Shown here one piece after another: positions 20,764 through 27,513 of a stretch of 48,639 bases of DNA (within the stretch, counting starts at the first letter, position 1; each line of letters starts with the position of its first letter). This stretch comes from a virus (taxonomy: Duplodnaviria; Heunggongvirae; Uroviricota; Caudoviricetes). The stretch spans positions 1 to 48,639 of the IMG/VR virus record IMGVR_UViG_2778261184_000002. One strand, given 5' to 3'. The notes beneath the pieces are model-generated. The model had not been told where the DNA came from. It made no database searches and worked only from the letters and a program-made list of their open reading frames with translations. A program made the translations under genes and the position numbers.

Positions 20764-21236
20764 TGTTTTTTAGCTCTCTGCGTGAAGGTGTAAACCCGAC
20801 GTTTGATATGTGGAACGGTAGGAACAGGAAGACAGGAACTTTCAATAACTCCTTGCTCCTCCAGCGATCGCACCGCCCGCAAGAACTGCGACGTGTCGCC
20901 GCCAAACTGGCGGGCATAGGTGCTGCCGTTATGAAGTATTTGAGCTATTACCCGAGCTTTTGTCTGGCTGTCACGATATGCGAATAGCCGCACGGCCTCT
21001 TCTGGCGCAATCGCTAACTGATAGCCTTTCCCGGCACGGTGTCGAATGAATCCATGCGCCAGTAGGTTTTTGAGTTCGTTACGAGTGCGAACAGATCCGT
21101 AATCCAGGAAGTGTGGATTGATAACGACTGGCTTAAACCATTCCGTAGGTGCTTTAGCTAATAGAGCTAACAGCTTCCCGGACAATTCTGGATAGGAAGA
21201 CGGGTAACAATTCAGAGATGGGTAATAAGTTTTCAC
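20760..21236 (-). CDS. Hypothetical protein
   Basis: 158-aa ORF, overlapping neighbours. Confidence 0.45.
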   Translation of the reverse strand: MKTYYPSLNCYPSSYPELSGKLLALLAKAPTEWFKPVVINPHFLDYGSVRTRNELKNLLAHGFIRHRAGKGYQLAIAPEEAVRLFAYRDSQTKARVIAQILHNGSTYARQFGGDTSQFLRAVRSLEEQGVIESSCLPVPTVPHIKRRVYTFTQRAKKQ

Positions 21237-21577
21237 CGACGCCCCCTTGCCGGATATCGACCTGCATTAGTATCCGGTGCAATAAAGCCGGTAGTGGGGC
21301 GAGTGAAAGCGAGATTAATCTTCTCGACCATAGTGCGATAATTTTCCTGATAGTGGGCCAGGAGTTTTTCGGCGGCAATGATGGTTACTTTCCGGACGTA
21401 GCTTTCTGCTTCCTCCAGATTTCGCCAGTTTTTTTCGAGGGTAAACACAGGGACGGCCTCAAGCCCGGTCATGATGCCGAACACAACGACAGCATGACTA
21501 TTCTTAACACCAGCGGCGAAGGTTACGGTGTAACCATCTACCTTGAAGCGTCTTGATTCCGTGATTTGACTCTGCAA
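21233..21577 (-). CDS. Hypothetical protein
   Basis: 114-aa ORF; first gene of an operon starting below an operator-like motif. Confidence 0.45.
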   Translation of the reverse strand: MQSQITESRRFKVDGYTVTFAAGVKNSHAVVVFGIMTGLEAVPVFTLEKNWRNLEEAESYVRKVTIIAAEKLLAHYQENYRTMVEKINLAFTRPTTGFIAPDTNAGRYPARGRR

Positions 21578-21635
21578 AGCACCCTCCTAAATAGGCGAGG
21601 GTACTTTACAGCAAAGGCGTTAATCTAAAAAGATG

Positions 21636-21652
21636 TGTTAGAAATTTAATTT
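21636..21652 (+). promoter_or_regulatory. Operator-like motif copy (TGTTAGAAATTTAATTT)
   Basis: Between the recombinase gene stop and the start of the 21577 operon. Confidence 0.45.
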
Positions 21653-22679
21653 ACGAATCCATCAGGCGGCTATTAGCCCCCACAGACACGCCGCCACGGC
21701 GAAGATACCGCATAAGTGTTTCCGGTTTCTTCCAGGTTCCTTCCTGCATGATCTCCACCATAGACACCTGCTTTTCAGCCATATCAATAGCGGCCCCGAC
21801 GCGTGCACTATGCCCGGTCCACGTCCGGTATCTTCCTTTGTTTGGCGTAGCATCTCTTTTATTCAGCAACACCCAGGCGTCGCTGAATATTTTCTCCATT
21901 GCAGGTGCAGTAAGGGGCGTTGTCGTGATCCTGGCCTTATTGCTACGGTGTATCGGCGGGAACAGCACTGCGTCAGGATGTTCGCGAAGCCCGGAAACAT
22001 CCAGCCAGTCATTCAGCACAGCGGTAGTGCAACGGGAAAGCACCTTATCAAGCCCGGCGGCGGTCGTTATTGTCTTCGTGTGTGAAATATGTAGCGTGAC
22101 AGTGTCACCTGTTTGGTCCAGATCTCCTACACGAATACGCGAGATTTCCGACATACGCATCAGCGTATTGTATGCAACAAAGAGAAAAGCCCGGTTGCGC
22201 AGATCCACCAGCCGTTCTGACCTGGACAACAGGACGTCGAGCAGTTTCAGATCGTCCCACCGCAGCGGTATAGCCTGGCCTGTTCGTTCGCCTTTTTCAG
22301 TTGCCGCTTCGCGCCGGATGCGCCGCATAGCCAGAGAAACACTTTTATCATCCGAAAGTGGCGGAAGGCCACAATGCGAAAGCAGCATGTTCAGCATGGC
22401 GTAGTGCTTATCAATGGTGGTCGAAGCCAGATCGGCATCATGCAGCTGAAGAAAATACTCGCGGGCCATCTCTGGTGAGATCGGGAACCAGGCGAGCTGG
22501 CGAGCGTGACACCATCTCGCCCAGGAGTGAAACACTAACCGGAGATCGCGCAAAGTATTCGGCGCGTAAGCCCCCTGGTCATTCATGAACCGCATAAAGT
22601 TTTCTGCGGCCTCCTGGTACTCTTTGCCAATGTTGCGCAGAAAACCACTGGAGCTGCCAGAGATAATTAATTCACTCAT
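21651..22679 (-). CDS. dre: Cre-family tyrosine site-specific recombinase (Dre-like)
   Basis: 342 aa; collinear with P1 Cre over the whole length (SWA-WC...WFP, SLAMRRIRRE, AYNTLMRMSEI-RIRV-D, GHSARVGAA-DMA, C-terminal catalytic Tyr region); adjacent rox-type site. Confidence 0.85.
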   Translation of the reverse strand: MSELIISGSSSGFLRNIGKEYQEAAENFMRFMNDQGAYAPNTLRDLRLVFHSWARWCHARQLAWFPISPEMAREYFLQLHDADLASTTIDKHYAMLNMLLSHCGLPPLSDDKSVSLAMRRIRREAATEKGERTGQAIPLRWDDLKLLDVLLSRSERLVDLRNRAFLFVAYNTLMRMSEISRIRVGDLDQTGDTVTLHISHTKTITTAAGLDKVLSRCTTAVLNDWLDVSGLREHPDAVLFPPIHRSNKARITTTPLTAPAMEKIFSDAWVLLNKRDATPNKGRYRTWTGHSARVGAAIDMAEKQVSMVEIMQEGTWKKPETLMRYLRRGGVSVGANSRLMDS

Positions 22680-22831
22680 GAAACTATTTAACCTCTATAT
22701 ACAGATGACGCTACGCGAAAAATATAAAAATGACAGGGTAGCTATAAGTTAATTTTCAAGATTCAAACCTTTGATTCGAGGCACGTATTTTCAGTGATGT
22801 CAACACTGATCATCCACCCATGATTATAGCC

Positions 22832-22863
22832 TAACTTTAAATAATGCCAATTATCTAAAGTTA
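22832..22863. other. lox/rox-type recombination site TAACTTTAAATAAT-GCCA-ATTATCTAAAGTTA
   Basis: 14-bp inverted arms around 4-bp spacer, 150 bp upstream of the recombinase gene; arms differ at one position. Confidence 0.75.
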
Positions 22864-22870
22864 GAAACTT
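22859..22870 (+). promoter_or_regulatory. Operator-like motif copy (AGTTAGAAACTT) overlapping the right arm of the rox-type site
   Basis: Partial match to consensus. Confidence 0.3.
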
Positions 22871-23036
22871 AGGAATTTTTTTCCTTTCCGCGTAGATGGG
22901 CAATGCATTGCTGGCGTGGGCTTTAAGTTATGCCTGGCAGTTTTTAAGCAGAATTTTCTAAATTGGATGATAAAAAAATGCATCTTGATCCTTTACTCAC
23001 CCTGTTATTCGGCATAGATTTGTCATAGTAATTTTA

Positions 23037-23053
23037 TGTTAGAAAACTAAATC
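23037..23053 (+). promoter_or_regulatory. Operator-like motif copy (TGTTAGAAAACTAAATC)
   Basis: 10 bp upstream of the RBS of ORF 23065. Confidence 0.45.
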
Positions 23054-23064
23054 GAGTAGGAATA

Positions 23065-24102
23065 ATGAGTAAGAAGTCGATCGAGAAAGAGTACAAACGG
23101 TTCCTGCAAACCGCTGAACGGTGGAAAGAGCTGGTGGTCGCAAACTCTGTTTTCCATGATACCAGTTATGCCGGCGAGGAATTCCGCCACGTTGCACTAA
23201 CACATGATCAGAATGTGCTAGAAGAAGCTGAAAAGTGCCTCACAGAATGGAAAGCCTTTGTTGACTTGTGCCGTAACGCTGACGGCAAAGCGTCCAACAT
23301 TGTTGAGTCTGTATATTCTCCGATCCCATTCATTATTGAGGACACAAATCAAAGCACGCATATTGTTGTGCAAAGCGCGACCACCACCCGCTCATTTACG
23401 CGCGAAAATCTGCTCAAAAAATATGATGCAATTATAAAGAAAAGCCTGAAAAACAAGATATTTTCGCAGATTGTTGGTGCACTTGAAGAAGAGCGCCGTT
23501 TTTTCGCATCAGAACCTGAAGGGGAAGTTTACCGGGCGCGCAAAGATGGATACACAGATGTAGTGCTTACAACAAACATTGAAGGCAGCAATGCTCTGTC
23601 ACGATTCAGGGTAGGCGCACACGGAGCCTTAGTGTTCGCAAAACTTCCGAACACCACAGTGCCCGTTGTTAATAATGTCGGCGAACGTCGCAGCATTACT
23701 ATTTATTCTGGGGTTGAGTCGATCCCTTGCGGCCTGCTTGGTGACTTTAGTCTCTATCGCGTTCGCGATCTGGAGAAACACCAACCAAGCTATGTTGCGA
23801 AGTCATACATCTTGCGAAACATCGACATCCGCAATGAGAGCTTAAAGAACAAATCAGCCAAAATGCTTGAGGAAGCCGATCCGGCTATTCGCCATATCAT
23901 TGAGCGTAAAATACAGACAGCACGCGAAGCGATGGCGAGACTGAATAAAATGGATCTGGAGTTGTTAGACGTAATGATGACATCCGGAGATGACCTGACA
24001 GGCATAAAACTGACAGACGCGCGGAAAAGATACGGTAAAACCATAGAAGAACGTTACGGGTTCACTTTCTCCCAAACACAGCACGCCGCTAAACTCTGGT
24101 AA
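23065..24102 (+). CDS. Hypothetical protein; positional candidate for the primary immunity repressor (C1 analog)
   Basis: 345 aa; lies between pacB-like gene and the recombination site as c1 does in P1; three operator-like motifs within 210 bp upstream. No sequence motif supports the function. Confidence 0.35.
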   Translation: MSKKSIEKEYKRFLQTAERWKELVVANSVFHDTSYAGEEFRHVALTHDQNVLEEAEKCLTEWKAFVDLCRNADGKASNIVESVYSPIPFIIEDTNQSTHIVVQSATTTRSFTRENLLKKYDAIIKKSLKNKIFSQIVGALEEERRFFASEPEGEVYRARKDGYTDVVLTTNIEGSNALSRFRVGAHGALVFAKLPNTTVPVVNNVGERRSITIYSGVESIPCGLLGDFSLYRVRDLEKHQPSYVAKSYILRNIDIRNESLKNKSAKMLEEADPAIRHIIERKIQTAREAMARLNKMDLELLDVMMTSGDDLTGIKLTDARKRYGKTIEERYGFTFSQTQHAAKLW

Positions 24103-24106
24103 TCAC

Positions 24107-24131
24107 AAGCCCCGCATTGCCGGGGCTTTAT
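24107..24131 (+). terminator. Rho-independent terminator
   Basis: AAGCCCCG-cattg-CGGGGCTT followed by TAT. Confidence 0.6.
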
Positions 24132-24173
24132 CCGGTGCGCCGTAAAACCCCGTCCTTCAGGGCGTGGAGGATG

Positions 24174-25682
24174 TCAAATATCCAGATCTGGCATTTCTAC
24201 ATCTGCAAGAACCTGATCGCGGAAGGTAGCCATTTCAGCGCCGATATCTTCATTAGCAGGAACATAGTCCACCAGCATTGTAAAGCAGTAGGTATCCCAT
24301 CGGTCAGGTGATTTGATGTTCAGCTTTTGCCGCATGTGCTCCTTGCGCATCATCGCCATCTTCCCTTCTTCATTAAGTAAAAAGGGGATTTTTGACGCTT
24401 GCTCTGCCGTTTTAGGGTCGCTGTCTATTCGCATACGACCTGACTTTATGGCATCACGAGCCATAATATTTGCGTAGGCACGCTGGTTAACAAAACGCTC
24501 CTTGTCTTTATTCGAAAACATGGGTTTCCCCCACCGAATCCGTACCGGGTTAGCCCCACGGCGCACCAGCTGCGCACAGGTATCTGAACCAAAACCGTCT
24601 GCGTCAACCGCGATTGTAATATTCGGGTATTTATCCGGCGTGCATTCGTTGTATATAAAGTCAGCAAAAGCCAGCGGGTCCATAGTCCCTGGCATTTCCA
24701 TTACCTTAAAGTTAACAACACGCCGCTTTTCCCGGTGACCAGACACTTTACAGATATTAAGAACTGACTTGTCTCGCCCGTTACCAACGTCAGCAGTAGC
24801 CACCCATCCCCAGTTTTTCTCCAACAACACCTTGCGCCGCGCAGCGCGATCGCATTCATCACGACCAAGCAAATAGCCGTTAATCTCCCGAGGAAACTGA
24901 CCAAGAACCTTGACCATGTACTCAATAGAATCGCGCCCGCCATATTCCAGGAGTTTCTGCCTGATGAATTGTGGTGTGACGAACGGTGATTCTTCTGAGT
25001 TAAGAACAATTGCTGTCCAGATCCCTTTCGGGTTGTCTGGGGTTTTAGCTTGAGAATGGTGCGAATCGTAGAAATAACCACTTGGCCTTGTTGGCTGGGA
25101 TAGCATCAACATTCGGTTATCTTCTTCAGTCAGAGCGCCAGTCATTACGCCGATCGCTTTATCAGATATACCTGATGCTTCATCCAGAATTAGAAGCAAA
25201 TGTGCCGCGTGCTCCCCCGCCAGAGCTTCTTCGTTACCGAGTCGATAGCCTTTGCAGAGAACTTCCCAGATCCCCTTTCGAGAGCGTTCATAAAACATGG
25301 TGTCAGACAGGACAAAATAGGTCTGTAACCACCCATGACGCTTAACGGCATTCGCCCAATACTGTTTAACGTATTTGAATACACCTGTCTTAACCTGACC
25401 TATTTTGTTAGCAACAATGATGACACGGGCATCGGGGAACAGAATCAAATAAATCAGCAACAACATAGCCGTTAGCGACGATTTCCCTGTACCGTGACCA
25501 GAGGTAACAGTGGTTCTGCTCCCTTTTTGCTGTACGGACTGGATAATCTCCTGCTGCTGGTGGGAGGGAAACATCCCGAATATATCAACAACAGCCTGGG
25601 TAAAGTTGTAGCGGTATTTGATTACCATATCGCGCCAGCGTGGATCGCTGGTGACGCATTTAATCTTGCGCCCACCAGCCAT
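24174..25682 (-). CDS. pacB: Terminase large subunit (PacB-like)
   Basis: 502 aa; Walker A GHGTGKSS, Walker B LLILDEASGI; follows pacA-like gene with overlapping stop/start. Confidence 0.8.
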   Translation of the reverse strand: MAGGRKIKCVTSDPRWRDMVIKYRYNFTQAVVDIFGMFPSHQQQEIIQSVQQKGSRTTVTSGHGTGKSSLTAMLLLIYLILFPDARVIIVANKIGQVKTGVFKYVKQYWANAVKRHGWLQTYFVLSDTMFYERSRKGIWEVLCKGYRLGNEEALAGEHAAHLLLILDEASGISDKAIGVMTGALTEEDNRMLMLSQPTRPSGYFYDSHHSQAKTPDNPKGIWTAIVLNSEESPFVTPQFIRQKLLEYGGRDSIEYMVKVLGQFPREINGYLLGRDECDRAARRKVLLEKNWGWVATADVGNGRDKSVLNICKVSGHREKRRVVNFKVMEMPGTMDPLAFADFIYNECTPDKYPNITIAVDADGFGSDTCAQLVRRGANPVRIRWGKPMFSNKDKERFVNQRAYANIMARDAIKSGRMRIDSDPKTAEQASKIPFLLNEEGKMAMMRKEHMRQKLNIKSPDRWDTYCFTMLVDYVPANEDIGAEMATFRDQVLADVEMPDLDI

Positions 25683-27435: not shown

Positions 27436-27513
27436 TAATCCCCCAGGCAGGAAATGACCGAGGGGATGATAATGAGAATGTTATTTCTGTATAGACTGGC
27501 AAAAAGTTGGTTA

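Follow-up and report, generated by a model that had tools for sequence, protein, structure and literature searches.

The window analyzed here (the whole 48,639-nt stretch of the Caudoviricetes record IMGVR_UViG_2778261184_000002 in IMG/VR) encodes a Cre-family tyrosine recombinase, beside which lies a rox-type recombination site whose two arms differ at a single position. This raises the question of whether the asymmetric arm is a natural and usable form of the site or a defect of one sequence and, further, whether the same arm doubles as a binding site for the neighboring prophage repressor, as a first-pass annotation of this DNA had suggested. The reading that we favor, with a probability of about 85%, is that the locus is the Dre/rox cassette of a D6-like plasmid prophage, that the T-to-C difference is a widespread allele of the arm facing c1 and is likely to be usable, and that the overlap of this arm with an operator-like 8-mer (GTTAGAAA) is due to chance. 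The Dre/rox system is already well known, and the C allele is a minor natural polymorphism; since Dre/rox is a standard genome-engineering tool, the locus offers no new biology of kind, and what it adds is modest, namely, rox as a natural point of reassortment and a conserved overlap of the site with a promoter-like element.

The recombinase, its site, and the host element

The coordinates of the features discussed here are collected in Table 1. The 342-aa product of dre matches the Phage_integrase domain of Pfam and, in line with the proposal that it is collinear with Cre, its residues 22 to 341 align with residues 21 to 340 of Cre in structures of the latter (E = 5.5e-69), with about 40% identity over the 320 collinear residues. 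Alignment with the published Dre of Escherichia phage D6 identifies the protein as Dre, as had been presumed; the two align without gaps at 99.4% identity and differ only by G11S and R217C. All the catalytic positions are intact (R175, K202, H290, R293, W316, and Y325; the published list for Dre comprises R175, H290, R293, W316, and Y325 [PMC4777119]). The window protein likewise has the Dre-type specificity residues R44, P259, and K263, located by alignment offsets from Cre; R, P, and K at positions 43, 259, and 263 of Cre turn that enzyme to rox specificity (Karimova et al., PMC4957104).

Table 1. Features of the window and their positions
Feature	Position	Strand	Score or comparison
Strong operator-like sites, 22 nt (start positions)	5514, 6164, 9669, 21633, 23034, 27511, 31253, 31409, 32659, 33701, 43606, 44812		18-31 bits
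Strong operator-like site ATGTGTTAGAAATTTAATTTAC, over dre stop codon, between dre and the next minus-strand gene	21633..21654	+	30.2 bits
dre, Cre-type tyrosine recombinase, 342 aa	21651..22679	-	340/342 identical to AAV84949 (D6 Dre)
GATC (Dam) site	22809..22812		GTTC in D6
Sigma-70-type promoter-like element, TTGGCA-16 nt-TATAAT, directed into dre (putative dre promoter)	22823..22850	-	11/12 consensus match
TATAAT (-10) hexamer	22828..22823	-	
TTGGCA (-35) hexamer	22850..22845	-	
rox, natural asymmetric allele, TAACTTTAAATAATGCCAATTATCTAAAGTTA	22832..22863		31/32 match to D6 rox
rox left arm, TAACTTTAAATAAT	22832..22845		exact match to D6 rox
rox central GCCA	22846..22849		exact match to D6 rox
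rox right arm, TAACTTTAGATAAT	22850..22863		13/14 match to D6 rox
C for T in right arm (position 25 of the 34-bp lox frame, 22831-22864)	22855		T in D6
Weak partial operator-like match TAAAGTTAGAAACTTAGGAATT at rox right arm	22856..22877	+	3.8 bits
Variable segment, rox to c1 promoter region	22864..22995		~68% identity to D6 over about 130 bp
T-run beyond rox, AGGAATTTTTTTCCTTT	22870..22886		
Strong operator-like site TTATGTTAGAAAACTAAATCGA, just upstream of c1 start codon	23034..23055	+	28.4 bits
c1, P1-C1-like prophage repressor, 345 aa, allele distinct from that of D6	23065..24102	+	identity to D6 c1 of 90% (amino acids) and 84.8% (nucleotides)

A rox-type site had been predicted about 150 bp upstream of the recombinase gene, and it is indeed found there, at a distance of 152 bp from the dre ATG (the same distance as in D6), with 14-bp inverted arms around a 4-bp GCCA spacer. 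The arms are imperfectly symmetric, unlike those of the reference: the D6 records (AY753669 and MF356679) read ATTATTTAAAGTTA with fully symmetric arms, and this canonical 32-mer is also the form printed in the literature. With T at this position in both the D6 records and the literature, the difference in the right, c1-facing arm is real; the statement of the first-pass annotation that the Dre target has symmetric arms agrees with the records. Neither of the variant 14-mers was found in the searchable literature. Within the window TAACTTTAAATAATGCCAATTATCTAAAGTTA occurs once, where shuffled sequences gave none (0 of 100 shuffles), and searches of the window allowing up to 3 mismatches, as well as a half-site search, recovered no second or pseudo rox besides the two arms themselves. 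When both sites are viewed in the 13-8-13 frame, the outermost pair is complementary in the window (C...G at 22831/22864) and is C...T in D6 (positions 2704/2737 of L001; L numbers are our handles for the elements compared), so that each of the two sites has exactly one asymmetric arm position, at different places: 10/25 in the window and the outermost C1/T34 in D6.

The setting of the cassette is that of D6. The order dut-orf3-orf2-dre-rox-c1-pacB-pacA is common to both, and the only phage record matched by the region from 21400 to 23100 in megablast is Escherichia phage D6 (93 to 96% nucleotide identity), whose annotations beneath the match are dre, rox, and c1, the last being described, both there and in related plasmids, as a phage repressor. 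In PLSDB the locus is present in about 116 plasmids, nearly all of them ~90 kb in size and non-mobilizable; a 22-kb stretch of the window is 98 to 99% identical to several of these ~90-kb plasmids, and one (NZ_CP069886.1) is 100% identical over the locus, both Dre substitutions included. Among 5,426 complete Escherichia coli genomes, 91 carry the locus, in one copy per genome and on a plasmid every time. From the D6 gene order and this plasmid-only, single-copy occurrence (91/91), we conclude that the source of the window is a D6-like (P1-like) circular plasmid prophage of Enterobacteriaceae. A second copy of the site at the other end of the genome, which the first-pass annotation had suggested looking for, is absent from the window and from the 91 E. 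coli genomes with the locus; none is expected of a circular plasmid prophage. An Rfam scan of 21000 to 24200 yielded only a subthreshold match to HgcC (18.5 bits against a cutoff of 50; E = 0.32), which we take as chance.

The closest known system is thus the Dre/rox of D6 itself (Sauer & McDermott 2004, as cited in PMC4777119 and PMC4957104), which the window resembles in protein, site, and spacing, in its neighbors (orf2, c1, pacB, and pacA), and in the two strong operator-like sites that flank dre. It differs from D6 in the C at position 25, in the two Dre substitutions, in the rox-to-c1 segment, in its c1 allele, and in the place of its arm asymmetry in the 13-8-13 frame, D6 being asymmetric at C1/T34 where the window is a symmetric C1/G34. 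By homology with Cre, one Dre monomer would bind each rox arm, two sites would come together in a tetrameric synapse, and Tyr325 would cleave and exchange strands within the central ATGCCAAT. Dre/rox is the D6 counterpart of P1 Cre/loxP, with which it shares the fold, the catalytic residues, and a site placed between the recombinase gene and c1/pac; it differs in arm positions 8 to 10 and in the specificity residues (K43/R259/G263 in Cre versus R44/P259/K263 in Dre; PMC4957104). By analogy with P1, the reaction is presumed to serve D6-like elements in two ways: it would circularize terminally redundant phage DNA after infection, and it would resolve plasmid dimers, allowing proper segregation of the low-copy prophage.

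Distribution, linkage, and expected effect of the C allele

A pattern scan of IMG/VR returned 35 loci, 29 of which have the GCCA spacer of D6. The C allele is present in 8 of these 29 D6-type sites, each time in the dre-distal arm, the remaining 21 being symmetric at this position; it is also present in 8/8 sampled plasmids (from E. coli, Shigella, and Salmonella), which were picked for their window-type c1 flank and are, like the sampled elements in general, not independent of each other. The carriers are L010, L012, L018, L019, L021, L029, L032, L036, and L040 to L047. When IMG/VR was searched with one arm and the spacer kept constant and the other arm left free, no arm polymorphism other than T/C was recovered. 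A further 23 matches from the half-site scan (L048 to L070) were set aside as chance hits in unrelated viruses, each without an inverted partner.

That only one base differs from the reference might be taken to mean that the C arose as an error of sequencing or assembly or that the site is decaying in a defective prophage. The same base, however, recurs in other independent assemblies, at least 16 in number, which come from various hosts and countries, and the adjacent dre is intact with all its catalytic residues, as are the D6-like genes around it. This recurrence refutes the error-or-decay explanation, whose likelihood we regard as negligible. The T-to-C difference is therefore a common natural allele rather than a private mutation, in keeping with the suggestion of the first-pass annotation that it might be a natural variant.

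The allele is tied to one side of the site. Alignment with D6 and comparison of segment identities across the 35 loci showed that the sequence starts to diverge from D6 where the right arm ends, whereas on the dre side elements with D6-type and window-type flanks are 96 to 100% identical. Of 31 elements, 30 have the T/C base that goes with the type of their right, c1-side flank; L037 does not. In contrast, all 42 common SNPs on the dre side (those with the minor allele in at least 5 of the 31 elements) occur in all four allele combinations with the right-flank type, among them SNPs as close to the left edge of rox as 14, 23, and 28 bp. Among equally common dre-side SNP pairs that lie <60 bp apart, only 12/107 (11%) display all four combinations. 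The free reassortment of dre-side SNPs with the flank, set against this low figure for nearby pairs, indicates that exchange is concentrated at rox; the interval in which linkage breaks is ~37 bp long, its bounds being a point 14 bp outside the left edge of rox and the T/C base, which is position 24 of the 32-bp site, and the crossover region falls inside it. The simplest reading of this pattern, in a sample that is not random and whose members are not independent, is that co-resident D6-like plasmids have exchanged DNA at rox repeatedly, although part of the reassortment could be due to homologous recombination that stops at the edge of rox, where homology runs out. Repeated exchange at rox implies that T-rox must recombine with C-rox, and we infer that elements with the two forms have evidently recombined in nature, with their dre and c1 sides exchanged repeatedly. 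In the evolution of these phage-plasmids, rox would then be a natural module boundary. The rox-to-c1 segment and c1 circulate in at least three allelic forms, namely, the D6 type, the window type, and a third (L005, L017, L026, and L030) with ~80% identity to both; these forms are freely combined with dre-side haplotypes, and the strong operator-like sites are common to D6 and the window.

Several observations bear on how the C allele might affect recombination. Position 25 belongs to the 8-10/25-27 triplets that separate loxP from rox specificity (PMC4957104), and for this reason some loss of affinity on the c1-side arm is possible. Dre, for its part, recombines sites whose half-sites carry 2 to 4 mismatches each (PMC10250229). 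No change in Dre compensating for the C allele was found linked to it among the C-allele elements examined: a Dre identical to the D6 protein adjoins C-rox in five of them (L012, L036, L042, L043, and L044), G11S and R217C are not common to the other C-allele elements, and G11S also occurs beside a T-rox in L034. As no substitution is common to these elements, there is no compensating Dre change. We consider it most likely, judging from these comparisons, that C-rox is a fully usable Dre substrate and that the allele is neutral or nearly so; it would be inherited with one allele of c1 and its flank and would not call for a matching change in Dre. The unmodified enzyme evidently copes with a common rox that is asymmetric at one base, a point that bears on the prediction of off-target sites and on the design of half-site mutants.

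The alternative is that the asymmetry is itself functional, with a weaker or different contact of Dre on the c1-side arm and with the allele held by selection; it might, for instance, favor one strand pair as the first to be exchanged, or it might tune the occupancy of the site by Dre and hence the activity of a dre promoter. The location of the substitution within the 25-27 specificity triplet (PMC4957104), its presence on the same arm every time, and the placement of this arm just upstream of the -35 hexamer of a promoter-like element (see below) are all compatible with this possibility, as is the asymmetry of the native sites of Dre relatives, which lies at 10/25 in Pantoea-type sites (L008, L015, L020, and L077) and in Rosenbergiella (L072) and at 9/26 in Mixta (L076). 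That the relatives share a position is, however, partly built into the search, since the pattern used to find them let only positions 9 and 10 vary. Moreover, D6 and the 21 of 29 IMG/VR sites that are symmetric at this position belong to a form that the literature describes as fully functional in the laboratory, the co-segregation of the allele with one flank type is as expected of a neutral linked mutation, and Dre tolerates mismatches (PMC10250229). We therefore regard selection for a functional asymmetry as very improbable and retain the reading of a neutral or nearly neutral, usable site.

Another close known system is Panto/pox of Pantoea sp. (PMC4957104). Panto is a recombinase of the Cre type with 52% identity to Dre, and each of the two enzymes recombines the site of the other, Panto that of Dre (rox) and Dre that of Panto (pox; PMC4957104 and PMC10250229). 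The native Panto site likewise has a single arm asymmetry at position 10/25, which was symmetrized for laboratory use (PMC4957104), and it differs from rox in having A rather than T as the outer arm base, another spacer, and no TATAAT beside the site. Across Dre relatives, position 10/25 appears tolerant. More generally, in the lox-like sites of Dre and Panto relatives the arms differ at position 10 (T/A or T/C) or 9 (G/A), the carriers being the four Pantoea-type elements, Rosenbergiella collisarenosi (whose site lies beside a Dre-like gene and has arms that differ at position 10), and Mixta tenebrionis; the Pantoea-type asymmetry is kept across different spacers. A scan of genomes at the species level gave 8 matches, and in the DNA retrieved a Dre-like gene lies beside the site in only 2 of them. 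Natural variation also extends to the spacer: L009 (3706-3737) has a rox with central GCTA beside a Dre only ~70% identical, and L024 (12405-12436) has one with central CCCC beside a Dre with 2 substitutions. These spacer changes should prevent recombination with standard rox.

The operator-like motif family and the right arm of rox

The 8-mer GTTAGAAA is over-represented in the window, with 13 copies against 1.6 expected, and belongs to a longer motif, RTGTTAGAAAWYTAATTT, of which the window has a strong family of 12 members, comprising 11 copies, from which the scoring matrix was built, and one close variant (the site at 27511; 25.5 bits). All 12 lie in gaps between genes. Because the motif is both over-represented and intergenic, the family is probably the operator set of a D6-type C1-like repressor, by analogy with the dispersed C1 operators of P1; no description of it was found in the literature searched. 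Two of its strong members flank dre, and both are kept in D6: the site just upstream of the c1 start codon is identical there, and the site over the dre stop codon retains its TGTTAGAAA core at the equivalent position.

The first-pass annotation had noted that the right arm of rox overlaps a copy of this motif, and literally it does, GTTAGAAA starting at 22860 so that it lies inside and just past the arm. The overlap is of the core only. The match lacks the T before the core, which is present in 11/11 matrix sites, and it lacks the 3' AATTT half. Against the full motif of ~18 nt, on which the strong family scores 18 to 31 bits, it reaches 3.8 bits and ranks 32nd in the window, where ~18 such scores are expected by chance from shuffled sequence. 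Four of the eight bases of the core are in any case dictated by the rox arm. Nor is the copy conserved in a relative with the same type of repressor, D6 having GTTATAAA at this position.

From the overlap it had been proposed that recombination-site occupancy is coupled with repressor binding, which in its full form would mean that the right arm doubles as a C1 operator at which C1 and Dre compete or cooperate, linking recombination to the lysogenic state. The marked excess of the 8-mer, one copy of which begins within the arm, speaks for such a role, and further points can be cited: relatives of the window type read GTTAGAAA(T/C/A)TTA, which gives 12 bases as in some of the strong copies, the base that varies in this string also varies among the strong sites, and several unrelated right-flank types likewise start with GAA. 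Against this stand the score, far below those of the 12 strong sites and of a kind matched ~18 times by chance, the missing T and AATTT tail, the constraint placed by rox on half of the core, and the lack of a c1-directed promoter-like element at rox. D6, with a C1 that is 90% identical and the same two strong sites, nevertheless has GTTATAAA here. Given the weak score, the core fixed by rox, and the D6 sequence, we do not accept a coupling of repressor and rox, which we regard as very improbable; we read the rox-adjacent GTTAGAAA as resembling part of the operator-like motif by chance rather than as a working operator.

A promoter-like element overlapping rox

On the minus strand, a sigma-70-type promoter-like element with a 16-nt spacing between its hexamers runs through rox into dre. 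Its -35 hexamer consists of the rox spacer plus one base on either side, 14 of the 16 bases between the hexamers are those of the left arm (the remainder come from GCC at 22829-22831), and 3 bp separate the outer end of the left arm from the -10 hexamer. In the region from 21500 to 23150 there is no other promoter-like match, and in the 48.6-kb window the element is alone in having at least 11/12 consensus positions, where 0.68 is expected. The TATAAT is found at the same spacing in all the Dre lineages retrieved, including one that is ~70% identical at the amino-acid level, while the surrounding bases vary. No promoter directed toward c1 was found at or near rox, either by scan or by eye. We infer that the element is a putative dre promoter.

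Since rox overlaps the -35 hexamer and the inter-hexamer spacer of this element, bound Dre may repress dre, and autoregulation of Dre through the overlap is plausible on the basis of this arrangement. The nearest precedent is provided by the resolvases of Tn3 and gamma-delta, whose sites at res overlap the tnpR promoter and which repress their own gene. The rox arrangement resembles these in placing a recombination site over the promoter of the recombinase; it differs in that the resolvases are serine recombinases acting at a three-subsite res, and the overlap at rox is predicted from sequence. In P1, by contrast, the nearest annotated cre promoter is 104 to 129 bp from the center of lox and does not overlap it. 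Should the overlap be real, it would neatly illustrate autoregulation by a recombinase and would call for caution in the use of rox in expression constructs.

A broader proposal can be built on this: crossover would take place at a site, rox, that also forms the core of the dre promoter, bound Dre would shut off dre, the T/C allele of the promoter-upstream arm would adjust the occupancy of the site, and the shuffling of immunity (c1) and recombinase modules among co-resident plasmids would occur mainly there. As a whole we hold this only tentatively, as a possibility that is more doubtful than probable.

A TTGACA hexamer is also present upstream of dre, and the GATC (Dam) site of the window is located between it and the promoter-like element; the regulatory region of P1 cre has three Dam sites. 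On the other side of rox, each right-flank type except that of L009 has a run of 6 to 9 T located 10 to 20 bp past the right arm, and in two of the right-flank types a short hairpin-like element (AGGAA/TTCCT and GGGA/TCCC) encloses it. The T-run could contribute to DNA bending or could act as a weak terminator or an upstream promoter element.
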